From: Candidatus Omnitrophota bacterium
GTDB lineage: Bacteria > Omnitrophota > Gorgyraeia > Zapsychrales > Zapsychraceae
Assembly: GCA_029261065.1 (NCBI GenBank)
Contig: JAJDCB010000026.1
Span: 166,320-230,319 of the forward strand
Reading direction: 5' to 3'
DNA length: 64,000 nt
Positions 18,112 through 64,000 of this stretch are shown piece by piece. The translations under genes and the position numbers were made by a program. Each line of letters begins with the position of its first letter. Within the stretch, counting starts at the first letter, position 1. Below the pieces are notes generated by a model that saw only the letters and a list, made by a program, of their open reading frames with translations, was not told where the DNA came from and ran no database searches.

Positions 18112-18125
18112 GAAGATTATTTTGA

Positions 18126-18147
18126 GGTCCCCGCTTTCGCGGGGATC
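18126..18147. repeat. REP-like GC-rich hairpin (variant CCCCGC-TTTC-GCGGGG)
   Basis: GGTCCCCGCTTTCGCGGGGATC sits between the two permease genes. It belongs to the TCCCGC-N4-GCGGGA family. Confidence 0.55.
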
Positions 18148-18166
18148 AATTAAGAGTGTTATTATT

Positions 18167-21616: not shown

Positions 21617-22489
21617 ATGAAAAAATTGTTGTATCTATTTATCGCATTACTTATTTCAGGGGCTGGATTTGTTAGTCCAAATCAAGTTGAAGCATACAAT
21701 TTCGGAGATTTTCGTTCGGAAACGTTGACAGCAAAAGCATGGGAAGCTTTGGCAGAAGACGATATTGAGGCCGTATTAGCATATACAAATAAGGTTATGG
21801 AACTTTATGGGGCGCAAGCACAACAAATGCAAGAAAGTATTGATGAATTTGTTAGTGGTCCTAAAGAAGACGTCTATGCTTTATGGGCATTAAACGATGT
21901 TTCTACAAGTTTGTTTATCCAAGGGGAAGCCTTTAGAAAAGCTAATATGGTTGACGAAGCCAAAGAAGTTTACAAGAAACTCTTAAACGAATACACGTAT
22001 GGACAATCTTGGGATGATAATGGTTGGTTTTGGAAACCAGCTGAAGCTGCTAAAGAAAAATTGGCAATGCTAGAATCCGGAACGAATTTAGATTTTGGCG
22101 ATTATTCTTCAGCGTATTTGACAGATCAAGCATGGAAGGCCTTAGGTAGCCAAGATCTAGAAGGTGTTGTTATCTATACGGATAAAGTTATGGAACTTTA
22201 TGCGAACCAGGCGCAAGAAATGCAAAATTCTTTGACAGAATATGCTTGGGAATCAAAAGAAAAAATATTTTCTTTGTGGGCTTTAAATGATGTTGGTACA
22301 GCGCTTTTCATCAGAGGTGAAGCGTTTAGGCAAGCAGGAAAGAACAAAGAATCTGCGCAAGCTTATAAAGCTCTCGTTGATAGTTATTATTATGCTCAAT
22401 GTTGGGATCCAGGTGTTAACAATAAAGGTTGGTTCTGGAAACCAGCTGAGGCGGCTCAACAAGCATTGGATGAAATTGGAGAAGTTTAA
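21617..22489 (+). CDS. Secreted protein made of two ~130-aa GWFWKPAEAA repeats (novel domain)
   Basis: Signal peptide. Two internal repeats, each ending ...LWALNDV[SG]T.LFI.GEAFR...Y.Y.Q.WD..GWFWKPAEAA. Confidence 0.5.
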   Translation: MKKLLYLFIALLISGAGFVSPNQVEAYNFGDFRSETLTAKAWEALAEDDIEAVLAYTNKVMELYGAQAQQMQESIDEFVSGPKEDVYALWALNDVSTSLFIQGEAFRKANMVDEAKEVYKKLLNEYTYGQSWDDNGWFWKPAEAAKEKLAMLESGTNLDFGDYSSAYLTDQAWKALGSQDLEGVVIYTDKVMELYANQAQEMQNSLTEYAWESKEKIFSLWALNDVGTALFIRGEAFRQAGKNKESAQAYKALVDSYYYAQCWDPGVNNKGWFWKPAEAAQQALDEIGEV

Positions 22490-26194: not shown

Positions 26195-28090
26195 ATGAAT
26201 CAGAGATATAATACTATTATTATTGGTGGCGGCCATGCAGGTGTTGAAGCCGCCTTAGCAGCCGCACGTATGGGGGTTAAGACCCTTATGGTGACCTTTT
26301 ATGCCGATACCATTGGCCAAATGAGCTGTAATCCAGCTATTGGCGGTGTTGGGAAGGGGCAGTTGGTTAAGGAAATTGATGCTCTTGGAGGTGAGATGGG
26401 GCTTGCGGCTGATCGTAGCGCTATTCAATTTCGCCAATTGAACACCTCCAAAGGACAAGCCGTTCGTTCCTCCCGATGTCAGTCTGATCGAAAACAATAT
26501 AAGCTTTATATTCAGGGTGTTGTTTCCAAGCAAGAGAATCTTACCGTATTAGAAGATAAGGTCAGTGATTTGTTGGTTAAGGGCGGACAGGTACTAGGTG
26601 TTAAAACCGAAAAAGGTTTAACAATAGATTGTCAAAACGTTGTAATCACCACAGGTACTTTTTTAAGAGGGCGCATTCATATAGGGCGAGAAATCACGCA
26701 GGGTGGAAGAATTGGTGAGCCAAACTCCATTTCGCTTGCTGATAGTATTGAAGCTTTAGGTTTTGAAGTGTTGCTCTTTAAAACAGGAACGCCTCCAAGA
26801 CTTGATGGGAAGACCATCGACTTCTCAAAATGTATCCCTCAATATTCTGATAATCTTCCCATACCATTTTCTTTTCGTACAACAGAGATTCCAAGTGATC
26901 AAAAATTATTGCCCTGTCACATTACGCATACAAATGAAAAGACACATCAAATTATTCAAGACAATATGGATTTGTCTCCGATGTATTCCGGCCAGATGAG
27001 TGCGACAGGTGTTCGCTATTGTCCGTCCATTGAAGATAAGTTAAAGAAATTTGGTGATAAGTTGCAGCACAACATTTTTTTAGAACCAGAAGGTCTTGAT
27101 ACGGATGAATATTACCCTAATGGCATTTCAACAGGTTTGCCTTTAGACGTTCAGGAGCAGTTCGTTCGTTCCGTTAAAGGATTAGAAAATGTAGTGATTG
27201 TTCGTCCGGGATATTCGATTGAACACGGTGTTATTCCACCGACGGAATTAACACCTTATCTAGAGACTAAAAAGGTAAAAGGTTTATTTTTAGCTGGACA
27301 AATTAATGGAACGACTGGATACGAAGAAGCTGGCGCACAAGGGTTGATGGCAGGTATTAATGCAGCATTGCAAGTTCAAAACAAAGAGCCATTTGTTTTA
27401 GGACGTAATGAATCTTACATTGGTGTTCTTATTGACGACTTAACGACAAAGGGAACGGAAGAACCTTACCGGATGTTTACCTCACGTGTTGAGTATCGTT
27501 TAATTGTTCGTGAAGATAATGCAGATAATAGATTGAGTCATTATGGGCACCAATTTGGTTTGTTATCTGATGAAGAGTTTGCAAGAGTACAAAAAAAATA
27601 TGAAGTTATCTCAGAAGAGATTCAACATTTACGTGAGACAAGAGTATATCCGGGAGAAGCGATTGATAGTGAACTAAGGAAGAGAAATAGTGCGCCCCTT
27701 AAACAACCGACATTGTTAAGTGATTTATTAAAGAGGCCGGAGGTTGATTATCAACTCATTGCTCCTTTTGATGGAGATTTAAAGAAGTATCCCAAGGTTA
27801 TGATTGATCAGGTTGAATATGAAATCAAATATGAAGGGTTTATTGCTAGACAAAAAAAAGATGTTGCGCGGTTTAGACATATTGAGAATATTAAAATTCC
27901 TGCTAATATCAATTATGATGAAGTGCCAAGTCTTTCTATTGAAATTCGTCAAAAGTTAAAACGTTTTACTCCACTTAATCTCGGCCAAGCCAATAGAATT
28001 TCAGGCGTCACACCGGCCGCGATTTCCATTTTGATGGTTTATTTAAAGAAATTTTTAACAAACTCTAGGTCCTCGCTTTTGCGGGGATGA
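26195..28090 (+). CDS. mnmG: tRNA uridine 5-carboxymethylaminomethyl modification enzyme MnmG (GidA)
   Basis: FAD-binding [10 protein letters not shown] motif. 631 aa. Sequence is MnmG-like throughout. Confidence 0.9.
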
Positions 28091-28140
28091 CAATATTAAT
28101 ATTTATATTAAGCGTGTCGTCCCCACGTATGTGGGGATCT
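28070..28140. repeat. Two REP-like GC-rich hairpins between mnmG and cysK
   Basis: CCTCGC-TTTT-GCGGGG overlaps the mnmG stop. GTCGTCCCCAC-GTAT-GTGGGGA follows it. The GTCGTCCCC prefix is shared with the copies at 42681 and 48170. Confidence 0.5.
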
Positions 28141-28161: not shown

Positions 28162-29097
28162 ATGAAGGTTGCCAAAGATATAACAGAACTTATCGGAAAC
28201 ACCCCGCTGGTGCGGCTTAATAAATTAAGCGAAGGGTGTCATGCCGAAATTTTATTAAAGTTAGAATTTTTTAATCCTCTTGGATCTGTCAAAGATCGCA
28301 TTGGGTTTGCTATGATTGAGGCCGCTGAAGCCCAAGGTAAGTTGAAAAAAGGAAAAACAATTATCCTTGAACCTACCTCAGGAAATACGGGCATCGCGTT
28401 GGCTTTTGTGTGTGCGGTTAAAGGTTATAAGTGTACATTAACGATGCCTGAGACAATGAGTTTAGAGAGACGTGCTTTGTTAAAGTCATTGGGTGCAAGT
28501 CTGATATTAACGCCCGCTTATGAAGGTATGCAGGGAGCAATTAAAAAAGCAAAAGAACTCGCCGCCTCAGATAGTCATTATTTTATCCCCCAACAATTCG
28601 AAAATCCCGCCAACCCTGAAATTCACCGAAATACAACCGCCCAAGAAATTTGGAACGACACAGATGGAGAAGTAGATATTCTTATTTCTGGCGTTGGTAC
28701 AGGTGGAACGATTACAGGTGTTTCTGAGGTGATTAAAAAGAAAAAATCTTCGTTTAAATCTATAGCTGTTGAGCCAAAAGGATCTCCTGTTATTTCCGGT
28801 GGTGAGGCTGGTCCGCATAAAATTCAAGGTATTGGCGCTGGGTTCGTTCCTGTAATATTAAACAAAGATATTATTGATGAAATTATTCAGGTAGATAACG
28901 AACATTCTTTTGAGTTTGCAAGACGCCTAATAAAGGAAGAAGGAATTTTATCCGGTATCTCCTCTGGCGCGGCTGTTTGGGCTGCTGTTGAGGTTGCAAA
29001 AAGAGAAGAGAATAAGGGGAAAGTTATTGTCGTGATTATTCCAAGTACGGGTGAGAGATATTTGAGTACGGAGTTGTTTGAAGAATATAGAAGTTAG
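28162..29097 (+). CDS. cysK: Cysteine synthase A (O-acetylserine sulfhydrylase)
   Basis: PLP-Lys motif SVKDR. Gly-rich loop GTGGTITG. Start chosen at MKVAKDI. Confidence 0.85.
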
Positions 29098-29101
29098 TAT
29101 G

Positions 29102-29191
29102 GATCCCCGTTTTCACGGGGATTACAAGGTTTCTATTAATACTAAGCATGTCATTCCCACCCCTTATGTCATTCCCGCGAAAGCGGGAATC
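29102..29191. repeat. REP-like repeat cluster (two hairpins)
   Basis: CCCCGT-TTTC-ACGGGG followed by CCCCTTATGTCATTCCCGCGAAAGCGGGAATC. The second matches 42690-42720 almost exactly. Confidence 0.55.
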
Positions 29192-29199
29192 AAATAATA

Positions 29200-29930: not shown

Positions 29931-30235
29931 CTCTTTAAAGTATTAAGTGGGTAAGTTAAGGCTAAAACATGTTGTCACGCGCAGTTCCGAAGCCGACAGC
30001 TTACCAATAATTGATGGTCAAGTCATATGATCATTCGCTCGGACAGTCCTCGCAGCGCATTTTTCTAAAAATTGCTTGCTGCGGAACTCGCTCTTATGAT
30101 CATATGACTTGACCATCAACAGAAAAGCTGAGAAATAAGCAATACAGTTCGTTTGCTTATTTCTTGTCGAGCGAAGGCTGTTTGAGCATGACAACATGTT
30201 TTAGCCTTAACTTACCCACGTGATTCTCCAAAGAG
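29931..30235. mobile_element. MITE-like non-coding element, copy 1 (~305 bp)
   Basis: Terminal inverted repeats CTCTTT..GTGGGTAAGTTAAGGCTAAAACATGTTGTCA (31 bp perfect). Internal 18-bp-arm hairpin GGTCAAGTCATATGATCA...TGATCATATGACTTGACC. No ORF. Homologous in inverted orientation to the element at 59300-59620. Confidence 0.55.
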
Positions 30236-31276: not shown

Positions 31277-31357
31277 GTCATTCCCGAGACATCGGGGACC
31301 CGTGAAGTTATTGTTAGAATTTTTTTATGTATAGGTTCCCGCTTTCGCGGGAATGAC
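31277..31357. repeat. REP-like hairpins between thiH and thiG
   Basis: GTCATTCCCGAGACATCGGGGAC and GGTTCCCGCTTTCGCGGGAATGAC. The second is the reverse-orientation form of GTCATTCCCGCGAAAGCGGGAAT. Confidence 0.55.
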
Positions 31358-31383
31358 ATGTTTTGGTTGTGTATGTCTTTGTG

Positions 31384-42680: not shown

Positions 42681-42899
42681 GTCGTCCCCGCCCCTTATGT
42701 CATTCCCGCGAAAGCGGGAATACTATGGGATAAACTCTAGTGGAATCACAAAATAGTTATAACTATAAATAGATTCCCGATTCCTCGGGAATGACAGGTA
42801 CGTGTTTTTCCCGTGATTACGCTTTTGTGCAACTCGGGAATGACAGGTACGTGTCTTTCCCGTGATTACGTTTTTGTGCAACTCGGGAATGACACGTAT
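42681..42899. repeat. Composite REP-like repeat cluster with 49-bp tandem direct repeats
   Basis: GTCGTCCCCGCCCCTTATGTCATTCCCGCGAAAGCGGGAAT. Then TTCCCGATTCCTCGGGAA. Then 2.3 tandem copies of the 49-bp unit CTCGGGAATGACAGGTACGTGTYTTTCCCGTGATTACGYTTTTGTGCAA (42784-42900). Confidence 0.6.
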
Positions 42900-48169: not shown

Positions 48170-48267
48170 ATCGTCCCCGGCTCATCTGTCATTCCCGCGG
48201 AAGCGGGAATCCATGGGGTGAACATCTCATAATAGTATTAATAGGTTCCCGCTTCCGCGGGAATGAC
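48170..48267. repeat. REP-like repeat cluster between prfB and secA
   Basis: ATCGTCCCCGGCTCATCTGTCATTCCCGCGGAAGCGGGAATCC ... GGTTCCCGCTTCCGCGGGAATGAC. Two inverted copies of the core. Confidence 0.55.
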
Positions 48268-48297
48268 AGTTTTTTGAAGCAACAATAAGGTGATATC

Positions 48298-51588: not shown

Positions 51589-53166
51589 TTGATTATGCGA
51601 ATAGAAAAGAAAGTCACTAGAGCGTTTTTTTTGATTCTTGTACTCATTGTCTTCTGTCTGGGCTTGACTCATACAACAAAGGCAAATGAGTATGATTTGG
51701 AAAATAACTCTTCAGAAGAACTCACAGCTAAAGCCTGGGCCGCTCTCAAAGAAAGAGACGTTGAAGCTGTGTTAGTTTATACAAATGAATGTATAAATTT
51801 GTATGCCGGTCGTGCTAAGAGAATGCAGGCTGAGTTAGAAAGTTATCCAACGGGTTCTAATGATGACGTTCATCAATATTGGGCTATCAACGATGTAGCC
51901 ACTTCATTATACATTCAGGCGGAGGCTTTTCGTGAAGTGAACATGATGGAGGAAGCCACAGAAGTCTACATTAAAATAATAAACGATTATAGTTTTGGCC
52001 AGACATGGGATCCAAGGGGCTGGTTTTGGAAGCCGGCTGAAGCCGCACAGGATAGGTTAGACGTTATTGAGTCGGGTAAGAATATAGATTTTGGGAATTA
52101 TTCTTCGGAGTTCTTGACGACGCAAGCATGGAATGCCTTAAATACTGGCGATCTTGACTCGGTCGATGACTACGCAGATAAGGTGATTAGCTTATATGCT
52201 GAGAAAGCTAAGGAGATGCAAAATTTTTTGGAAGACTATCCTTTGGGGTCAAATGAGGACATTCATCTTTTTTCAGCGCTCAATGATGTCGGAACTGTTT
52301 ATTTTATTAAAGCGCAAGCGCAAGAGAAAAAAGATGATAAAGATGGGGCTATCTATTATTATAAAAAAATAATTAACAGTTATTCTTACTCCCAGTGTTG
52401 GAATCCAGAAGGCTGGTTTTGGAAGCCGGCTGAAGGCGCGAAGGACAGAATACATATTATTAGGTCGGGTAAGAATATAGATTTCGGGAATTATTCTTCG
52501 GAATTTTTGACAACGCAAGCATGGAAGGCTTTAAATGCTGGAGACTTTGAGTCGGTCAATGACTATGCAGATAAGGTGATTAGTTTATATGCCGATAAAG
52601 CCAAAGAAATGCAAGACGCATTGAGCGGGTATCCCTGGGAGTCAAATGCAATTATTCATTCCCACTGGGCGTTGAATGATGTAGGCACCGTTTATTTTAT
52701 AAAGGGAGAAGCGGAAAGGAAGGCGGGCAACAATAAAAGAGCTATTAACTATTATGAAAAGGTTGTTAGTAATTTTTATTTCTCACAGTGCTGGGATCCA
52801 GAAGATTGGTTTTGGAAGCCGGCTGATGCAGCTCAACAGGCTTTAGATGAACTAGAAGATGAAGCGCAGAAGGCTAAAAAATACGCTCATATGAAAAGTT
52901 CAAAAAGAATCGGTGCTGATACGAAAAATATTACGGATAATAAGTTAGGCGTTGAAGGTGGTTTAGTCGTTTCTAATATGACTTATGGGAGTAAAAGTCC
53001 AATGATTGGAAGTATAGAGAATAGTGAAGTCATTTTTAACAATCAGAGTGAAAGTGAAGATGAAAATAAAGACAGTGTATGGGGAAAACTTTGGTGGAAA
53101 GTTATCATTCCAATATCAATATCGGTGATAGCAGCGGCATTAATTTTAAAATTCGTAAAGAAATAA
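51589..53166 (+). CDS. Secreted, C-terminally membrane-anchored protein made of three GWFWKPAEAA repeats
   Basis: Signal peptide. Three ~135-aa repeats each ending Q.WDP.GWFWKPAE[AG]A. Ser/Asn-rich linker. C-terminal TM helix (VIIPISISVIAAALIL). Confidence 0.5.
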   Translation: MIMRIEKKVTRAFFLILVLIVFCLGLTHTTKANEYDLENNSSEELTAKAWAALKERDVEAVLVYTNECINLYAGRAKRMQAELESYPTGSNDDVHQYWAINDVATSLYIQAEAFREVNMMEEATEVYIKIINDYSFGQTWDPRGWFWKPAEAAQDRLDVIESGKNIDFGNYSSEFLTTQAWNALNTGDLDSVDDYADKVISLYAEKAKEMQNFLEDYPLGSNEDIHLFSALNDVGTVYFIKAQAQEKKDDKDGAIYYYKKIINSYSYSQCWNPEGWFWKPAEGAKDRIHIIRSGKNIDFGNYSSEFLTTQAWKALNAGDFESVNDYADKVISLYADKAKEMQDALSGYPWESNAIIHSHWALNDVGTVYFIKGEAERKAGNNKRAINYYEKVVSNFYFSQCWDPEDWFWKPADAAQQALDELEDEAQKAKKYAHMKSSKRIGADTKNITDNKLGVEGGLVVSNMTYGSKSPMIGSIENSEVIFNNQSESEDENKDSVWGKLWWKVIIPISISVIAAALILKFVKK

Positions 53167-54981: not shown

Positions 54982-56124
54982 ATGAACTGGAGACAATCAG
55001 AAATTAAAATTATTGGTTATGTGTTAGCCCTTCTCTATGCCATTTCCTTTTTGGCATATTATAATTTTTATCAATTTGTTACACTTAATGCTCCAGACGT
55101 TCAGGCGATGAAGTTGGTGTCCCTTTCGGTGATAGCTACATTCTTCGCTATTCTTTTTGTAGGTTCCATAGCTGTTGCTCAATTAAAAGAATGGGGGCGC
55201 ATTGTTATTGTATCTGCCAATCTTATGATGGGCATTTATTTGGCTATTCCGTATATAAATCCTGCGGACATCCTTCCGTTAAGTTACATCATCATGAATG
55301 TTGTTATATTTCTTTATTTTATTCAAGATAAAGTGAAGTCTCGTTTTAATATGATCATCGACGGCAAATGGCGTAGCATATTAGTCATCGATGACGATGA
55401 AACATTGCTTAAAACTATTCGCCCCATTCTTATCTCCAAAGGTTACTCGGTCTTAACAGCCATGACAGGAGAAGATGGTTTGCAAGCTGCTAAAAAACAT
55501 AAACCGGATTTAATCATTTTAGATGTTATTCTTCCAGGCATAAAGGGAAGAGATGTGTGTCGTAAAATAAAAGAAGATAAAACAACGACACATATTCCGG
55601 TTGTATTTTTGACATCGAAAAGTTCTGAATCTGATATTGAAGCAGAACTAGATGCTGGTGCGATAACACATTTGACGAAACCTGTTAATGCGACCATTTT
55701 AAGTTCTACAGTAAGAAATATTTTAGATGCAGAGTCAAAAGATCGTCCGGAATGGCGAAGTATATTAGTTATTGATGACGATCTAACGTATCTAACGACA
55801 TTGCGTCAATCATTGTTATCACATGGTTACTCGGTTTTAACAGCGAGTTCAGGAGAGGAAGGCCTTGCAATTGCTAAGAAACAAAAACCCGAACTCATTT
55901 TGTTGGATGTTATTATGCCAGGCCTTAAGGGTCGAGAAGTTTGCGAAAAACTTAAAGAAGGATCTGAGACTGTAGATATCCCAGTCGTTTTTTTAACAGC
56001 TAAAAATTCTCCAGATGATATTAAGGCAGAGTTAGAAGTTGGGGCAGTGACACATTTGACAAAGCCAGTCGATACCAAAGAGTTAATTTCGACAATCAGT
56101 AATATATTACATTTACAAAGTTAA
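54982..56124 (+). CDS. Membrane-anchored tandem receiver (REC-REC) protein with no output domain
   Basis: ~110-aa N-terminal region with 3-4 TM helices. Two ~125-aa CheY-like receiver domains (phospho-acceptor LIILDV and LILLDV; TKP motifs) share ~60% identity with each other. Confidence 0.65.
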   Translation: MNWRQSEIKIIGYVLALLYAISFLAYYNFYQFVTLNAPDVQAMKLVSLSVIATFFAILFVGSIAVAQLKEWGRIVIVSANLMMGIYLAIPYINPADILPLSYIIMNVVIFLYFIQDKVKSRFNMIIDGKWRSILVIDDDETLLKTIRPILISKGYSVLTAMTGEDGLQAAKKHKPDLIILDVILPGIKGRDVCRKIKEDKTTTHIPVVFLTSKSSESDIEAELDAGAITHLTKPVNATILSSTVRNILDAESKDRPEWRSILVIDDDLTYLTTLRQSLLSHGYSVLTASSGEEGLAIAKKQKPELILLDVIMPGLKGREVCEKLKEGSETVDIPVVFLTAKNSPDDIKAELEVGAVTHLTKPVDTKELISTISNILHLQS

Positions 56125-57086: not shown

Positions 57087-57121
57087 TAATTTTTAGCGGT
57101 AGAATAACTAAGGTACAAGAT

Positions 57122-57140
57122 ATCCCGCCTTTTGCGGGAC
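57122..57140. repeat. REP-like hairpin (diverged copy)
   Basis: ATCCCGCC-TTTT-GCGGGAC. Confidence 0.4.
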
Positions 57141-57257
57141 CGCGGCAAGTTACAAAAAAGAAACAATAACCAATGACTAAAACACCAAACGTTAGGTTTC
57201 TAAGTAGTTGATTTTTAATCGTTTTTGTAGTTTTTACCTTTTATTGGAGAAGTCAAA

Positions 57258-57443
57258 ATGTCTCAAAATTCCGAATCCAGTTACAAAAAATTTTTGTCTG
57301 TCCTCATCGGTATTTTTCTTCTTGTCCTAGGCATCACCTTATGTTTGGTCTGGTGGAAAGATATGATAGCTTTAGTCCGAGGAGCTTCAGGTATTGTTTT
57401 GGCAGTGGCAGGGTTGTTGGTTTTGTATACACTTAGTAAATAA
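57258..57443 (+). CDS. Small membrane protein (61 aa)
   Basis: Two hydrophobic helices. RBS-like GGAGAAG upstream. Confidence 0.25.
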   Translation: MSQNSESSYKKFLSVLIGIFLLVLGITLCLVWWKDMIALVRGASGIVLAVAGLLVLYTLSK

Positions 57444-57552
57444 TTGGATTAAGTTAGAATTTATTGTTTAATACACCAAAAGAATTATCAATGGTTAAAA
57501 AAGTTAAGCGTTTGGTCATTTTATTATTGGGTATTGGTTATTTTTTGCCTTG

Positions 57553-57572
57553 GTCCCGCCAGAGGCGGGATA
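57553..57572. repeat. REP-like hairpin (diverged copy)
   Basis: GTCCCGCC-AGAG-GCGGGATA. Confidence 0.4.
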
Positions 57573-57629
57573 TCTTGTCTCTTGTACCTTGGTTATTCTT
57601 GCGTCAATAAATACCTTTAAAGGACAATC

Positions 57630-58657: not shown

Positions 58658-59281
58658 ATGAAACAAATTACAGAAGCTATGAATCGAATTCGAAAATATT
58701 TTTTATCAGGATTGGTCGTCTTTTTGCCGATCACCTTGACGATTTTTTTATTTATTTGGGCGGTTACTGTATCCGACGGTGTGTTAGGAAAGTACCTTCA
58801 ACCTGTATTTGAGAAGAGGTTTGATTTTTATGTTCCGGGTATAAGTATTATTGTTACGGTTATAATAATTATTATTGTTGGTTTTCTTGTGACGAATTTT
58901 TTGGGACAGAGAATCTATTCTTATTTCGAGAATTTGGTTATCAAGTTTCCATTTTTTCGTCAAGTGTACCCTGCCCTTAAAGAGATGGCGTTGTTTCTTT
59001 TTTCTCGAGATCGTTTATCAAAATTTAAACAGGTTGTCCTTATTGAATATCCTCGCAAAGGTATTTTCGCCATTGGATTTTTGACGAATGAATCGTCGCA
59101 ACTTTTAAAAGATAAGGTGAAGAAAGATATTATCAATGTCTTTATTCCAAGTGCTCCGGGACCGTTAACAGGATTTGTGATATTGGTGCCACGTAATGAG
59201 GTTATTTTTACGGATATGACGATTGAGGAAGCTTTTAAATTTATTCTTTCAGGGGGCGTTGTTAATCCGTTGCATGTTTAA
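58658..59281 (+). CDS. DUF502-family membrane protein
   Basis: N-terminus ...RKYFLSGLVVFLPITLTIFL and the overall pattern are typical of DUF502. Confidence 0.45.
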   Translation: MKQITEAMNRIRKYFLSGLVVFLPITLTIFLFIWAVTVSDGVLGKYLQPVFEKRFDFYVPGISIIVTVIIIIIVGFLVTNFLGQRIYSYFENLVIKFPFFRQVYPALKEMALFLFSRDRLSKFKQVVLIEYPRKGIFAIGFLTNESSQLLKDKVKKDIINVFIPSAPGPLTGFVILVPRNEVIFTDMTIEEAFKFILSGGVVNPLHV

Positions 59282-59299
59282 AGAGTAACCAATGGCTTT

Positions 59300-59620
59300 T
59301 TGAAGTATTAAGTGGGTAACTTCAGAGGCCAAATAATATTGTCATGCTCAAATAAATAGCGTTTAGCTATTTTTTTGAGTGCTCAAACAACCTTCGCTCG
59401 ATAGGAAATAAGCAATAATAAAAGTTGTTTTGCTTATTTCCCTAGCTTTTTCTAAAATTAAGGGTCAAGGCCATATGATCACAAGAGCGAGTTCGTCGCA
59501 AAGCGACGTTGTCTGAGCGAATGATCATATGGCCTTGACCCTTAATTGATTGTAAGCTAGCGGCTTCGGAACTGCGCGTGACAACATTATTTAGCCTCTG
59601 AAGCTACCCACTTAAATTTC
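59300..59620. mobile_element. MITE-like non-coding element, copy 2 (~320 bp, inverted relative to copy 1)
   Basis: Terminal inverted repeats ATTAAGTGGGTAACTTCAGAGGCCAAATAATATTGTCATGC / reverse complement. Internal 20-bp-arm hairpin GGGTCAAGGCCATATGATCA...TGATCATATGGCCTTGACCC. Internal segments align with the reverse complement of 29931-30235. Confidence 0.55.
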
Positions 59621-59639
59621 CAAGGAACCTAAATAATCA

Positions 59640-61070
59640 ATGCTTTTTAACTCCCTAGAATTCCTCATATTCTTTACTATTGTTTACAGTCTCTATCTTG
59701 TTTGTAACCATCAATGGCAAAACCGAATGCTTTTGGTTGCGAGTTATGTCTTTTATGGTTGTTGGGACTGGCGATTTCTTTCTCTTATTTTTGTCTCAAC
59801 TCTTCTAGATTATGTCTGCGGCCTAAGAATGGCTTCACGGCCCAAAGATAAGCGAAAGATTTTTCTTTGGATCAGTTTAGGAGTTAATCTTACTCTCCTT
59901 GGTTTCTTTAAATACTTCAATTTTTTCACTGCAAATGTAATTGATTTTTTGGCGTTGATTAACGTTGATACCAATATCACCTTACTCAATATTATCCTTC
60001 CTGTCGGTATTTCTTTTTATACGTTTCAATCCCTGAGTTACACCATTGATATTTATAGGGGAGAGATCAAGCCTACGCGCAACTTTATTGATTTCGCCCT
60101 TTATGTTGCGTTGTTTACTCAATTAGTGGCGGGACCTATTGAGCGCGCTAAGCATTTATTACCTCAGGTGATTAAACCCCGCACAACATCAATGACGCAT
60201 TTTTATGAGGGATGTTTTTTAATTTTTTGGGGACTATTTGAGAAGATTTTTATTGCAGGGAATTTGGCCAAGATTGTAGATCCAATTTTTGCAGCAGAGG
60301 GCTCTTATGAAGGGTTGTCTGTTCTTGTTGGAATGTATGCGTTTTCTTTTCAAATTTTTTGTGACTTCGATGCGTATTCGAATATCGCCAAAGGATTGGG
60401 GCGATGTATGGGCTTTGATATCATGACTAATTTTAACTTGCCCTTTTTTGTCACCAACATGCAAGACTTTTGGAATCGTTGGCACATCTCTTTAAGTCTT
60501 TGGATACGAGACTATCTTTACTTTCCTCTTTTTCAAGCTTTAAAGAAGTTTAAAGGTAATATAAGAGTCTACATCACGTTATTGATTTCAATGACTCTTA
60601 TTGGTCTTTGGCATGGGGCGTCATGGAATTTTGTTGTGTTTGGTGTTTATCATGGGATCTTGCTGGCCATCTATGTGATGATCCGTCTGTATTGTCAGAC
60701 CTGGGTTAATCCGAAATCTCAATTGATGAAAGGTGTGTGGCATGTGGCGCGTGTCGTCTTTGCTTTTCATTTGATTGCCGTGGGAATGCTCATTTTTCGT
60801 GTGCAGACAATGGGACAGGCTGCGCGTATGCTGGGATCGCTTATAACAAACTTACAGTGTGATCAAACGGTAATAAATAGTTTTGTATTATTTCTTTTGA
60901 TTATCACACCACTTTTAGTCGTTCAGTTTGGACAACTTAAAACCAAGAATTTGATGTTTCTCTATAATCAACATTGGCTTGTTAAAACATTCGCATACGC
61001 CTTTATGAGTTATTTGCTTCTTGGCTGGGGGATTATGCAAACAGAGGAGTTTATTTACTTTCAATTTTAG
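59640..61070 (+). CDS. MBOAT-family membrane O-acyltransferase (DltB/AlgI/PatA-like)
   Basis: 476 aa, polytopic. Conserved His in LIGLWHGASWNFVVFG. Typical MBOAT core. Confidence 0.8.
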   Translation: MLFNSLEFLIFFTIVYSLYLVCNHQWQNRMLLVASYVFYGCWDWRFLSLIFVSTLLDYVCGLRMASRPKDKRKIFLWISLGVNLTLLGFFKYFNFFTANVIDFLALINVDTNITLLNIILPVGISFYTFQSLSYTIDIYRGEIKPTRNFIDFALYVALFTQLVAGPIERAKHLLPQVIKPRTTSMTHFYEGCFLIFWGLFEKIFIAGNLAKIVDPIFAAEGSYEGLSVLVGMYAFSFQIFCDFDAYSNIAKGLGRCMGFDIMTNFNLPFFVTNMQDFWNRWHISLSLWIRDYLYFPLFQALKKFKGNIRVYITLLISMTLIGLWHGASWNFVVFGVYHGILLAIYVMIRLYCQTWVNPKSQLMKGVWHVARVVFAFHLIAVGMLIFRVQTMGQAARMLGSLITNLQCDQTVINSFVLFLLIITPLLVVQFGQLKTKNLMFLYNQHWLVKTFAYAFMSYLLLGWGIMQTEEFIYFQF

Positions 61071-61073
61071 ACG

Positions 61074-62390
61074 ATGACACATTCAAAACATAATTCTATT
61101 TTTATAAAACTCTTTCGTATTTTTCTTTTTATCATCTTTTTAGAAGTTTTTCTTATTTGTGGGGGTGTGATTACGAAAGCTTATCAAGACCAGCACAATA
61201 AAAGGAGTTTGGGTAAGGACTATGAATATCGTATTTTAGTGTTGGGCGATTCCTTAAGCCACGCTGGAGGAGTGGATTCTTATCCGCTTCAATTAGAGAG
61301 ACTGCTCAATAAATCTCAATCAGACGTAATTTTTAAAGTCATTAATGAATCTTATCCTGCTCAGAACTCTAATATCATTCGAGAGAAAATTGATGAATGG
61401 ATTAACGAATACCAGCCGCATCTCGCTGTCACGATGTTTGGTATGAATGACGATGTTGATTTGGTGGCCTTTGATCAAAGGGATGAACCGCAAACTTTAA
61501 GTGCGACACTTAATAAATTTAAAGTTATGCGTTTAACCAAAAGCCTTTGGAAAGATATCATAAATCATTTTTCAGATGAGAGTGATGAAGCGCTCAGCAT
61601 GGAGAAGAATGATACGAAAGAAGCTCAAGATCAACCTAAAACAGGACCTGTTCCGCCTAAGTTTTCTTCCTTTATGATGCAAGGTATCAAATTGAATCAA
61701 CAGGGACAATATGCGCCAGCAGAGAAGATCTTTAAAGTGCTGTCACAAACAAATTTTGATGATACCTTCACCAAACGCTCGAATCGAGAATATTACAACA
61801 GTCTTTTTGGACAAAAGAAGTTTGAACAAGCCGTTAGGCAACTGAAACCATTTTTTCAAGATGACGCATGGGATTTTTTCGCCAGTGAAAGAGTAAAAAT
61901 TTTATGTAAAGATTCACAAGCAGCCCAACATACAATCACGATGTTTAAAACGATGATTCAAGAACGCCCCAAGGCAGAACGTTTTTACAATCTAACGGGA
62001 GCTTGTCACGCCGCCCAAAATCAAAACAAAGAAGCTGATCAATATTTTCAAGAAGCCAAAAAATTAAGTTCAAGCTCCATCAATCCCGTCACACAAGACA
62101 ATTATTTGTATGTCATAGATCGTTTAACCGAAAACAATATCTACATTGTTGCCATGCAATATCCAAGAAGAGATATCGAACCTCTAAAAAACATGCTTCG
62201 TTCATCAAGTACATTCGCAGACATTCATTTCGTTGATAACGATCAAACATTTGAATCTGCACTATCCAGCAAATCCTACGATGAGATCTTTATCGATCGA
62301 TCATTTGGAGACTTTGGACATTGTTCAGAAGAAGGCTATGCTCTTATTGCAGAGAATTTAGCAGGAGTTATTAAAGATATTGTTTATTAG
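61074..62390 (+). CDS. Membrane-anchored SGNH/GDSL-type esterase/transferase with a helical (TPR-like) insertion (DltD/AlgJ-like)
   Basis: N-terminal TM. Block I GDSLS (VLGDSLSHAGG). Block III GMND (FGMNDD). Block V DxxH near the C-terminus (GDFGH). ~250-aa helical insertion between blocks III and V. Confidence 0.6.
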   Translation: MTHSKHNSIFIKLFRIFLFIIFLEVFLICGGVITKAYQDQHNKRSLGKDYEYRILVLGDSLSHAGGVDSYPLQLERLLNKSQSDVIFKVINESYPAQNSNIIREKIDEWINEYQPHLAVTMFGMNDDVDLVAFDQRDEPQTLSATLNKFKVMRLTKSLWKDIINHFSDESDEALSMEKNDTKEAQDQPKTGPVPPKFSSFMMQGIKLNQQGQYAPAEKIFKVLSQTNFDDTFTKRSNREYYNSLFGQKKFEQAVRQLKPFFQDDAWDFFASERVKILCKDSQAAQHTITMFKTMIQERPKAERFYNLTGACHAAQNQNKEADQYFQEAKKLSSSSINPVTQDNYLYVIDRLTENNIYIVAMQYPRRDIEPLKNMLRSSSTFADIHFVDNDQTFESALSSKSYDEIFIDRSFGDFGHCSEEGYALIAENLAGVIKDIVY

Positions 62391-62530
62391 GCGAATCTAG
62401 GCGAATCACGCAAATTAAGTGTAAAGCGATATGATCATTCGCTCAGACAAACTCCCTTCGGTCGTAACTCGCTCGGTGATCATATCGCTTTACACTTAAC
62501 GGAAGAGTCGGCGAAGAGAGAATGTATCTT
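62391..62530. mobile_element. Solo hairpin module of the MITE family (copy 3)
   Basis: Perfect 21-bp arms AAGTGTAAAGCGATATGATCA...TGATCATATCGCTTTACACTT (62417-62507). Shares the ATATGATCATTCGCTCRGAC core with copies 1 and 2. Confidence 0.45.
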
Positions 62531-62590
62531 CACATATTTTGCGATTTATGATATATTGACGTTCCATTAAACAATTTAATATTTTTCCCA

Positions 62591-62887
62591 ATGATCAACG
62601 AAGAACAAGTAACCGAAGCCATTTATGCAGCTATTGATTCGGTTAATGAAACCTTACCAGCTGAGAAGCACATTAAAAAAGCCTTAGATACTGTTTTATT
62701 TGATATTGATGGTTATGTGGACTCTTTGGGTTTAACGATTTTAGTTGTTGCTATTGAACGAAAGGTTGATGAGATGTTTAATCAAAGCATCAATCTGATG
62801 AACGAACAACCAATGGCAACAAGCACCGGTCCATTTTCTAATGTCAAAAATTTAATTGATCACGTGAAAGTTTTATTAGAGGAATAA
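62591..62887 (+). CDS. Acyl/peptidyl carrier protein (DltC-like)
   Basis: 98 aa. Phosphopantetheine-attachment Ser motif (DGYVDSLGLTILVVAIE). Confidence 0.6.
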   Translation: MINEEQVTEAIYAAIDSVNETLPAEKHIKKALDTVLFDIDGYVDSLGLTILVVAIERKVDEMFNQSINLMNEQPMATSTGPFSNVKNLIDHVKVLLEE

Positions 62888-62890
62888 TAT

Positions 62891-64000
62891 ATGGATCCTC
62901 AAAAAATTCTTTTGATTTCAGATTTTAATTGCGAAATTCTTAAAGGTTATCTGGATAACAACGCGGAAGTTCCTTCATTGCAAGCTTCATGCTCCACTTT
63001 TGGCCAACCCATTCAAACCCTATTAAATCCTTCCGATCCTATTTGGCAATCAAAATATGATGCGTTATTGATTTGGACGCAGCCGCAGGCTGTCATTGAA
63101 TCGTTTCATGATTGTCTTAATTTCAAACACCCTTCTCTCGATACCATCCTTAATCAAGTCGATGAGTATGCTGATATTATTTTAGAGAATAAAACAAAGG
63201 CTTCGCATATCTTTATCCCTACATGGAGCGTTCCTTCATGTTTTCGTGGTTTTGCCCTTCTTGATCATAAACAAACAGGCATCGCGTATGTTCTTTCACA
63301 AATGAATGCGCGCTTAGCATCTCGTTTTATGAATGAAGACAATATTTTCATTTTAGATTCTCAAAAATGGATTGAATCCGTCGGGCCAAAGGCTTTTAAT
63401 TCTAAGATGTGGTATCTTTCTAAGACACCTTTTGATCTGACTGTTTTGCAAAAAGTGGCTGTGGATATTAAAGCAGCATTGTGCGCCTTAGCTGGGCAGA
63501 CAAAGAAATTGGTTATTGTCGATCTTGATGACACCCTTTGGGGAGGCATTGTTGGAGATGTGGGTTGGGAACATTTACGTTTAGGGGGACATGATGCGAT
63601 CGGGGAGGCTTATCTTGATTTTCAAAAGGCTTTGAAATCTTTAACCAACCGAGGCATTCTTCTCGGTATCGTTAGTAAGAATGAAGAATCGATCGCCCTT
63701 GATGCTATTGATCAAAATCCTGAAATGTTTCTAAAGCGGGAAAACTTTGCTGCTTGGCGCATTAATTGGGACGACAAGGTTCAAAATATTTTAGATTTAG
63801 TTGAAGAGCTCAATTTAGGATTACAATCAGTTGTTTTTATTGATGATAATCCCGTTGAACGTGCCCGGGTTAAAGAGGTTTTACCGGAATTGCTCGTGCC
63901 TGACTGGCCTAAAGATCATTCTCTTTTTAAAGAGACCCTTCTTTCGATGTCTTGTTTTGATCAAAGTGTGTTAACAGAAGAAGATAGCAAGCGTAATGAA
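62891..64000 (+). CDS. FkbH-like HAD-superfamily (subfamily IIIC) loader enzyme, N-terminal ~370 aa (continues beyond window)
   Basis: Open frame from the ATG at 62891 to the window end. HAD motif I LVIVDLDDTLWGGIVGD. Motif III SKNEES. Motif IV IDDNPVE. FkbH-like N-terminal domain. Confidence 0.6.
   Translation, partial: MDPQKILLISDFNCEILKGYLDNNAEVPSLQASCSTFGQPIQTLLNPSDPIWQSKYDALLIWTQPQAVIESFHDCLNFKHPSLDTILNQVDEYADIILENKTKASHIFIPTWSVPSCFRGFALLDHKQTGIAYVLSQMNARLASRFMNEDNIFILDSQKWIESVGPKAFNSKMWYLSKTPFDLTVLQKVAVDIKAALCALAGQTKKLVIVDLDDTLWGGIVGDVGWEHLRLGGHDAIGEAYLDFQKALKSLTNRGILLGIVSKNEESIALDAIDQNPEMFLKRENFAAWRINWDDKVQNILDLVEELNLGLQSVVFIDDNPVERARVKEVLPELLVPDWPKDHSLFKETLLSMSCFDQSVLTEEDSKRNE

Follow-up and report, generated by a model that had tools for sequence, protein, structure and literature searches.

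Nested palindromic repeats fill the spacers of a Dlt-like acylation cluster in an Omnitrophota genome

Genes and repeats at the locus

We analysed a 64,000-nucleotide stretch (the window) of a Candidatus Omnitrophota genome (assembly GCA_029261065.1, contig JAJDCB010000026.1, positions 166,320 to 230,319). Near its right-hand end, the genes for an MBOAT family O-acyltransferase and an SGNH/GDSL-like protein lie between two members of a family of short palindromic repeats that resemble miniature inverted-repeat transposable elements (MITEs). A first-pass annotation read this bracket as a sign that the gene pair had been acquired, or is rearranged, as a unit by recombination between the repeats, and suggested that this might explain how a Dlt-like core became joined to an FkbH/acyl carrier protein pair. 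From left to right, the layout is copy 2 (plus strand), MBOAT-SGNH, copy 3 (minus strand), carrier-FkbH-SDR-HAD, and copy 4 (plus strand), the last of which lies beyond the window. With copy 4 included, the entire cluster from MBOAT to HAD is bracketed too. The gaps between genes within the two blocks are only 3, 3, 5, and 15 bp. The block boundaries are the only spacers of the cluster, and all three are filled by an element.

The MBOAT gene (59640..61070, plus strand, 476 aa) encodes a DltB/AlgI-like protein (Pfam match at 7e-15), which scores 177.5 bits against the DltB model, under the equivalog cutoff of 375. Its partner (61074..62390, plus strand, 438 aa) has a weak match to GDSL_2 (30.9 bits against a cutoff of 32.9). 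The translation shows GDSL and DxxH motifs, the middle part is helical (TPR-like), and homologues come after the MBOAT gene on three other contigs (L002, L003, and L004). The next open reading frame (ORF; 62591..62887, plus strand, 98 aa) is a putative acyl or peptidyl carrier protein, an assignment made from its DSL motif, its size, and its position beside FkbH. The motif is invariant among homologues that precede FkbH genes elsewhere. Searches of Pfam (E<=1), PDB sequences, and PDB profiles returned no match for this ORF, and its single-sequence AlphaFold (AF2) model has low confidence (pLDDT 56). The FkbH-like gene of the HAD-IIIC type (62891..64000, plus strand; TIGR01686, 4.8e-40) is cut by the window end. 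A Logan contig from run SRR15505515 (L001/L020), identical to the window, extends further and carries the full 564-aa gene, followed by a MaoC-dehydratase/SDR fusion (542 aa), a HAD hydrolase (224 aa), a spacer, an H+-PPase gene, and an SNF transporter gene. The best protein matches are from Candidatus Omnitrophota.

The obvious comparison systems are Dlt D-alanylation (DltA-D) and the O-acylation pairs of MBOAT and SGNH proteins of the AlgI/J/X or PatA/B type. As in those systems, an MBOAT gene here stands beside an extracytoplasmic SGNH-like partner and a small carrier-like protein. The cluster is nonetheless no canonical Dlt operon (DltA ligase, DltC carrier, DltB MBOAT, and DltD): the MBOAT protein falls under the DltB cutoff, and a DltA-type ligase is absent, with the FkbH-like HAD-IIIC protein, the MaoC-dehydratase/SDR fusion, and a HAD phosphatase in its place. 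The cluster looks like a Dlt-like surface-acylation pathway in which an FkbH-type loader would replace DltA, a putative function. Homologues of the FkbH protein occur at about 50–55 per cent identity in many phyla, and we found no description of an FkbH/MBOAT-type cluster in the literature searched.

A family of nested palindromic elements

Copy 2 fills the 358-bp spacer between the DUF502 and MBOAT genes (59282-59639; DUF502 stop at 59281, MBOAT start at 59640). Inverted repeats, alignments, and the predicted fold delimit it as a full-length, nested-palindrome element on the plus strand (59295..59631, core 59308-59615). Its left terminal inverted repeat (TTAAGTGGGTAAC...GTTGTCATGCTCA, 59308..59350, plus strand) pairs with the right one (59573..59615, plus strand); both are 43 nt long and they are 88 per cent complementary, and arm pairing continues, more weakly, out to about 59295-59631. 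Between the arms lie two hairpins on the plus strand, both recognized from alignments or pairing. Hairpin 1 (GGAAATAAGCAA ... TTGCTTATTTCC, 59404..59441) has a 12-bp stem. The hairpin 2 module (GAGCGAGTT ... GTCTGAGCGAA, 59456..59547) has a perfect 26-bp stem (100 per cent) and a conserved asymmetric loop. Folded as RNA, the whole of copy 2 has a predicted energy of -157 kcal/mol (z -15.7 versus shuffles). Copy 2 also carries a 35-bp insertion of its own (59353..59387, plus strand), with a terminator-like make-up of an A-run, a 7-bp stem, and a T-run (T7). This insertion is itself a palindrome nested within the element. It is edged by an 8-bp direct repeat, TGCTCAAA, at 59345-59352 and 59380-59387, and alignments place it in neither copy 1 nor the relative from another genome described below (L007).

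Copy 3 is a solo hairpin module on the minus strand (62415-62499, or 62413..62501 with its A/T extension). It is 85 nt long with a perfect 23-bp stem, and it sits in the 200-bp spacer (62391-62590) that runs from the stop of the SGNH-like gene at 62390 to the 98-aa ORF at 62591. Its minus-strand loop reads GCGAGTTACGACC...GTCTGAGC, and over 91 nt its identity with the hairpin of copy 2 (59456-59547) is 81 per cent (E 5e-14, blastn). It consists of the long-hairpin module alone, with no other part of the element and no outer repeats. Both repeats that the first-pass annotation had placed around the gene pair, an element directly 5' of MBOAT and a solo hairpin between the SGNH and carrier genes, are therefore real, with an important correction: strand-specific covariance-model scores put copy 3 in the opposite orientation to copy 2. 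Copy 2 scores 96 bits on the plus strand and 53 on the minus strand, copy 3 scores 99.7 on the minus strand and 47.7 on the plus strand, and copy 1 scores 109 on the minus strand and 48 on the plus strand.

Copy 1 is a second full-length element (29931..30235, minus strand, opposite to copy 2), delimited by inverted repeats, alignments, and the model. Its terminal repeats are 53 nt long and 87 per cent complementary, and it takes up the spacer that separates thiH from a convergent VTT/DedA-like gene; these two genes are unrelated to the cluster. The two full copies are about 73–79 per cent identical. Hairpin 1 is present in both, and its closing pair is compensated (G-C in copy 2 versus A-T in copy 1).

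Copy 4 lies 2.9 kb past the window end, in the spacer between the HAD and H+-PPase genes (7445-7535 on L001, equivalent to window positions 66946-67036, plus strand; hairpin covariance model R1, 35.9 bits, E 5e-7). It is a hairpin with a 24-bp stem (96 per cent complementary), and a 71-aa ORF called over it had no family match. Its loop (GCGAGTTACGAACC ... GAGTTGTCTGAGC) is nearest to that of copy 3, and the loops of these two copies are each other's closest match (GCGAGTTACGA(A)CC ... GAGTT(T)GTCTGAGC), which fits local duplication or hopping. Its stem ends in a tip (AAGTGGGCAAA) similar to that of the outer repeats (TTAAGTGGGTAA).

The known family thus has four members within 71.4 kb, two of them full-length. 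The full form, of about 305–340 bp, combines terminal inverted repeats of 43–53 nt with a small and a long hairpin. The long hairpin, with its perfect 23–26-bp stem and conserved asymmetric loop (GCGAGTT ... GTCYGAGC), is also found alone at 85–91 bp, and in copies 3 and 4 the hairpin stem provides the only 'ends'. All four are short and non-coding, with no ORF of note within either the full copies 1 and 2 (305–340 bp) or the solo copies 3 and 4 (85–91 bp). The window contains the loop motif GCGAGTT-N(10-40)-GTCYGAGC three times versus 0 expected, and a run of model R1 over the window with filters off returned the three copies and otherwise weak generic palindromes. In this Omnitrophota chromosome, the elements occupy spacers that bound transcription units.

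Every copy has a long stem that is a perfect palindrome, though six to nine of fourteen outer stem positions differ between copies. The outer arms within one full copy are more alike than they are to the arms of the other. G-U pairs are absent from the stems and both strands fold equally well, which favours a DNA-level palindrome (a fold-back repeat, hairpin intermediates, or correction of one arm by the other) over an RNA specific to one strand.

Relatives and database searches

We scanned a genome collection, which did not include the source genome, with a pattern for the hairpin core and recovered one true relative. It comes from a metagenome-assembled genome titled Planctomycetales (L007, GC 0.49), where it is placed between two divergent genes. 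It shares the core TGCTCAAACAG..TCGC, the segment GCGGAACTGCGCG, and the long hairpin, in which the loop motifs and the stem base ATATGATCA are retained. It is without hairpin 1, and its outer repeats are different and shorter, at about 15 nt. The pattern of conservation, with the core kept more than the ends, is unusual. Because this relative lies in an unrelated, higher-GC genome, the element is not tied to the acylation cluster.

Other searches for the family were negative. A relaxed-pattern scan of metagenomes gave eight matches, all by chance, within coding sequence and with no palindrome, and a scan of viral sequences for the hairpin pattern gave none. Rfam 15 gave no matches over the whole window at gathering scores, and at relaxed thresholds copy 2 had only sub-threshold, generic-hairpin matches. 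Comparison with plasmids and phages by blastn found no match to the element, and the genome and metagenome scans found no insertion sequence accompanying the family. No description of it in Omnitrophota was found in the literature searched, and this nested-palindrome repeat family is previously undescribed in the phylum.

Gene order in other genomes

For comparison, MBOAT homologues of 56–62 per cent identity were placed on their contigs, and one further locus (L021) was found via FkbH. Four loci keep carrier, FkbH, and MBOAT genes in a tight operon, with gaps of 0–38 bp before MBOAT; at least two of these four genomes are Omnitrophota. The order is carrier (46 per cent) – FkbH (51 per cent) – MaoC/SDR (42 per cent) – MBOAT (60 per cent) – downstream ORF in L016, carrier – FkbH – MBOAT – DUF1574-like gene in L017, carrier – FkbH (N-terminal part) – MBOAT – SGNH/TPR gene in L003, and carrier – FkbH – MBOAT – LB_356 in L021. 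In L004-6 and L018, MBOAT and an adjacent SGNH-like gene occur without carrier or FkbH. L019 has MBOAT with a downstream ORF without a match and no carrier or FkbH, and L022 has carrier-FkbH within a sugar cluster without MBOAT. Neither blastn nor model R1 found the element in any of the compared loci (L003-6, L016-19, L021, and L022).

Since carrier, FkbH, and MBOAT are adjacent without repeats in four genomes, the association of the Dlt-like genes with FkbH is conserved and is older than, or independent of, the repeats; it is ancestral rather than made by them. The suggestion that the repeats explain how a Dlt-like core became joined to the FkbH/carrier pair is refuted by the same four genomes. 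Examining synteny, as the first-pass annotation proposed, did turn up MBOAT and its partner without flanking elements, but there they stand beside carrier and FkbH with the block order swapped. Relative to the four genomes, the order in the window (MBOAT-SGNH, then carrier-FkbH-SDR-HAD) amounts to a swap of two adjacent blocks, and each of the three swap junctions holds a member of the family (copies 2, 3, and 4).

The only closer relative is a JGI contig (L002), whose MBOAT gene is 86 per cent identical in amino acids and 79 per cent in nucleotides, with an internal deletion of 304 bp (window 60615-60918). The SGNH-like gene next to it is only 34 per cent identical. In place of carrier and FkbH are two unrelated minus-strand ORFs (a MORN-repeat ORF and an ORF with no assigned function), and a C-terminal MaoC/SDR fragment (70–79 per cent amino acid identity) lies 2.3 kb downstream. 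Model R1 found no family member in this contig. The region 9996-15190 of L002 is a decayed locus with remnants of a window-like order (MBOAT ... SDR). A window-like order without an element suggests that the swapped order is independent of the present elements; because the locus is degraded, this argument is not a strong one. The abrupt change in identity at the MBOAT/SGNH boundary of L002 suggests a recombination breakpoint there.

Acquisition and recombination

Nothing in the composition of the gene pair or its surroundings indicates recent import. The MBOAT gene has a GC content of 0.376 and 0.390 at third codon positions (GC3), which correspond to z-scores of -0.23 and +1.53 among forty-three window genes; for the SGNH gene the values are 0.364 and 0.317 (z -0.81 and -0.48 among the same genes). 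The neighbourhood is one of core envelope biogenesis (Lnt, an LpxL-like gene, and DUF502), and in L004-6 an LpxL-like gene is also found directly 5' of MBOAT. The other window ORFs of at least 120 aa are housekeeping genes, including SecA, LeuRS, MurJ, UvrC, RF, ThiG/H, MnmE/G, Lnt, and the LpxL-like gene. No transposase, integrase, or recombinase domain was found in the forty-five window ORFs scanned (forty-three of at least 120 aa, the 98-aa ORF, and a 61-aa ORF).

The repeats themselves also bear on the claim that the pair was moved. Excision by homologous recombination calls for direct orientation and a long, near-identical segment. Copies 2 and 3 are inverted, their longest identical run is 22 nt, and their stems otherwise differ. 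Being inverted, they would on recombination invert the 2.9-kb segment between them and not excise or move it, and such recombination would be inefficient. A composite unit, in turn, calls for two complete copies with usable outer ends. Copies 2 and 3 share only a 7-nt similarity at their tips (TTAAGTG), and because copy 3 is without outer repeats, the composite-transposon model is short of one end. The unit 59308-62499 is flanked by TA on the left and CG on the right, with no direct target duplication; only the ambiguous palindrome TTAA is common to both sides. Copies 2 and 3 each have TTAA at either end, but this tetranucleotide is a palindrome that acts as part of the stem. Copy 1 ends in TCAC and TTAA, and its hairpin in TTGA and TCAA.

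The proposal that the gene pair was acquired or is rearranged as a unit thus divides. Rearrangement holds, as a block swap relative to four genomes, and acquisition has no support, given the typical composition and core neighbours. Recombination between the repeats as its cause is not supported either, with inverted copies at 81 per cent identity, copy 3 without terminal repeats, and junctions that are the only spacers available. The present copies are unsuitable as substrates for it. The repeats most likely neither delivered MBOAT-SGNH nor joined the pair to its neighbours.

Transcription and known repeat systems

Several candidate functions and identities were considered and rejected. Copies 3 and 4 are not canonical intrinsic terminators, as no T-run follows the hairpin. 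An outward promoter in copy 2 was looked for as a consensus match on the plus strand inside the element, and there was none; transcription of MBOAT thus probably starts further upstream and crosses the element. Across the 57–64 kb region, the best match to a sigma-70-like promoter, by consensus only (TTCACA-17-TG-TATATT, 62529..62557, plus strand), lies between copy 3 and the carrier-protein ORF. Integron attC sites were rejected because there is no integrase and RYYYAAC/GTTRRRY cores were not seen by eye in the hairpins or terminal repeats, though no formal scan was made. Palindrome-associated transposable elements of the IS200/IS605 type are contradicted by the long terminal repeats. A retron msr/msd is contradicted by the lack of a reverse transcriptase and by repeats that are too long.

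Among known systems, the closest in general form are the Correia elements of Neisseria (NEMIS) and the ERIC/IRU, RUP, and BOX repeats, which are likewise short, non-coding, bounded by inverted repeats, intergenic, and present in full and truncated forms. Such repeats often lie inside operons or just before start codons, and form long hairpins in DNA or in co-transcribed RNA. The element showed no sequence similarity to anything in Rfam, plasmids, or phages, and the architecture here is nested. Unlike Correia-type MITEs, no TA or other target duplication can be defined here, and, in the reverse of the classic MITE pattern, the core is conserved across genomes and the terminal repeats are not. 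REP/BIME units, which are mobilized by RAYT (REP-associated tyrosine) transposases, are also palindromic, and they too are found in spacers at the 3' ends of genes in either orientation, with a likely role as mRNA-stabilizing or terminating hairpins. REPs, however, are 20–40 nt long with a conserved GTAG-type head; the hairpins here are 85–110 nt, and no RAYT or IS200/IS605-like gene is present in the window. REP, ERIC, and Correia elements have been described as affecting transcript stability, processing, or read-through. By analogy, the Omnitrophota hairpins, if they act at all, would most plausibly do so as inter-cistronic structures for transcript stability, processing, or read-through.

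Two further systems share the arrangement of small repeats around genes. MITE-bracketed mobilizable units and composite transposons also place two related small repeats around a gene module. In such units (for example, integron mobilization units and class 1 integrons with paired MITEs, in Acinetobacter and Enterobacter), the two copies are complete and near-identical, their outer ends are functional, and a target duplication surrounds the unit as a whole. The pair of repeats examined here consists of a full copy and a solo hairpin, which are inverted and 81 per cent identical, and no duplication flanks it. Integron cassettes likewise have imperfect-hairpin sites (attC) at their boundaries, but there is no integrase here and the elements also lie between unrelated housekeeping genes.

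Other repeats in the window

Palindromes are common in the spacers of this genome in general. A further family, unrelated to the first and made up of short intergenic palindromes of the TGTCATTCCCGCGAAAGCGGGAATGACA type, occurs at 29167-29195, 31331-31358, 42698-42726, 48187-48214, and 48241-48269, with related units at 18118-18156, 28060-28098, 29094-29132, and 42764-42802. Its core, TCCCGC-N4-GCGGGA, is found five times versus 0.01 expected. Beside these palindromes, in the MurJ-UvrC spacer, is a perfect-register tandem duplication of a 49-nt unit (42784-42881, 96 per cent). Between the LpxL-like and Na/Ca-exchanger genes, a segment of about 527 bp (57087-57613) is bounded by inverted repeats of about 60–90 nt (75–79 per cent complementary), which contain CCCGCC..GGCGGG palindromes; it encloses the 61-aa ORF (57258-57443), with two transmembrane helices.

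Repeats were also found within genes. Three tandem 393-bp repeats (51955-52846) lie in a TPR_6-containing gene (51595-53166), and a diverged relative of this repeat (21959-22469) lies in another TPR_6 gene (21617-22489). A 380-aa response regulator (54982-56124) has two receiver domains through an internal duplication of 384 bp (55441-56112; 70–72 per cent nucleotide identity), and these domains come after a membrane-like N-terminus.

Discussion

We favour, with a probability of about 0.58, the reading that these are nested palindromic repeats, similar to MITE, REP, or ERIC elements, which were independently inserted or locally hopped into the permissive spacers of an old, conserved cluster. 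The elements would have inserted independently, or hopped over short distances, into the only DNA that tolerates insertion. An older block swap, which put MBOAT-SGNH before carrier-FkbH-SDR-HAD, would have preceded their arrival or been independent of it. Any effect would probably be that of very stable RNA or DNA hairpins between cistrons, such as protection of transcript ends, partial termination, or processing. It is unlikely that the elements act as recombination substrates. The placement of the three window copies is not unusual (two of the three lie within two gene boundaries, P about 0.2), and overall it is mildly non-random, with the mild local clustering expected if elements hop locally. 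We infer how the elements spread, when they did so relative to the swap, and any effect on transcripts.

Several observations weigh against this reading. The element-filled spacers coincide exactly with the three block-swap junctions. Counting copy 4, three of four copies occupy consecutive spacers (P ~0.025 for spacers of at least 80 bp, ~0.10 for all boundaries), in a test that was post hoc and in which the spacers are partly made by the elements themselves. Nucleotide homology to L002 begins at window position 59635, about 20 nt past the end of copy 2. Simple drift of dead insertions does not explain perfect stems in all copies. We found no target-site duplication, empty site, or autonomous partner, and mobility itself is something that we infer.

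The first two of these observations would make sense if the swap had used the elements as substrates or been driven by them, with recombination or a transposase acting at three members to excise one block and re-insert it at another copy. The order differs from four repeat-free relatives, a family member stands at every junction, and the tips of the solo hairpins are similar to those of the outer repeats (TTAAGTG / AAGTGGG), such that one enzyme could in principle recognize all of them. This does not seem likely to us. The orientation of the three elements is plus, minus, plus, but excision and re-integration require direct repeats, and at their present identity (81 per cent, with a 22-nt run) the copies are too diverged to recombine by homology. 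On its own, the tip motif shows no enrichment in the window (eleven versus 8.6 expected), there is no recombinase nearby, and L002 holds remnants of the swapped order with no element. Moreover, an element that seeks out spacers would land at the junctions in any case, since the cluster has no other spacers. A related and more speculative idea, which we consider quite improbable, is that the hairpin is the recognition site of a putative recombinase or transposase and the family a fold-back element of distant phyla that swapped the blocks. It draws on the perfect, copy-specific stem, the invariant asymmetric loop motifs, and the GTGGG(Y)AA-type tip.

The perfect stems could instead reflect selection on structured RNA genes or cis-acting RNA motifs, such as a protein-binding hairpin, which would not be mobile DNA. 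Loop motifs and core are conserved across two very different genomes with variable outer parts, every stem difference is compensated, and predicted folding is very strong (the z-score given above for copy 2). We nonetheless regard an RNA as unlikely. Perfect Watson-Crick stems that lack G-U pairs and are equal on both strands are typical of DNA palindromes, the mismatches in the outer repeats are inconsistent with wobble pairing on one strand, and no Rfam family matched at gathering or relaxed thresholds. Orientation and neighbours are inconsistent as well: elements are found on both strands, 3' of genes and also between divergent genes, a pattern that speaks against a cis-regulator specific to the cluster. 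That MBOAT-SGNH is a recently acquired cassette in a composite, MITE-bracketed mobile unit is very unlikely. The pair is flanked by two related repeats, and pairs of MBOAT and a partner do occur in many different Omnitrophota neighbourhoods. Against this, its composition is typical, carrier, FkbH, and SDR are immediately adjacent as in the conserved operon of the relatives, the copies are inverted and diverged with terminal repeats missing from copy 3, no matching direct repeats surround 59308-62499, and no identical unit was found elsewhere. It is extremely unlikely that the bracket is an assembly artefact produced by a chimeric join at the repeats. The short-read contigs from SRR15505515 do break inside the copy 2 hairpin, with a 13-nt overlap: L023 ends at 59514 and L001 begins at 59502, inside the loop. 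These independent Logan contigs are, however, 100 per cent identical to the window across both junctions. The right-hand contig runs unbroken from inside copy 2 via MBOAT, SGNH, copy 3, and carrier to the SNF gene, and the left-hand contig bears the counterpart stem and terminal repeat of the left side, whose copy-specific variants pair with those on the right-hand contig. As these stems and terminal repeats pair across both contigs, the arrangement is no assembly chimera, and the break probably reflects a drop in coverage at a strong hairpin. Such elements will fragment short-read assemblies of these genomes.

Under the reading we favour, of repeats inserted or hopped into the spacers of an old cluster, the bracket itself is ordinary, a case of palindromic repeats in the free spacers of an operon. 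The family is of interest for its stems, which stay paired while their sequence changes, and for its relative in a very different genome. The Dlt-like pathway that these repeats punctuate, with its putative FkbH-type loader, is widespread in uncultured bacteria. A block swap with marked junctions also offers a small test case for whether repeats cause local changes in gene order or follow them. If the hairpins did prove to be recombinase sites, the three junction elements would be scars or active sites of modular operon shuffling.

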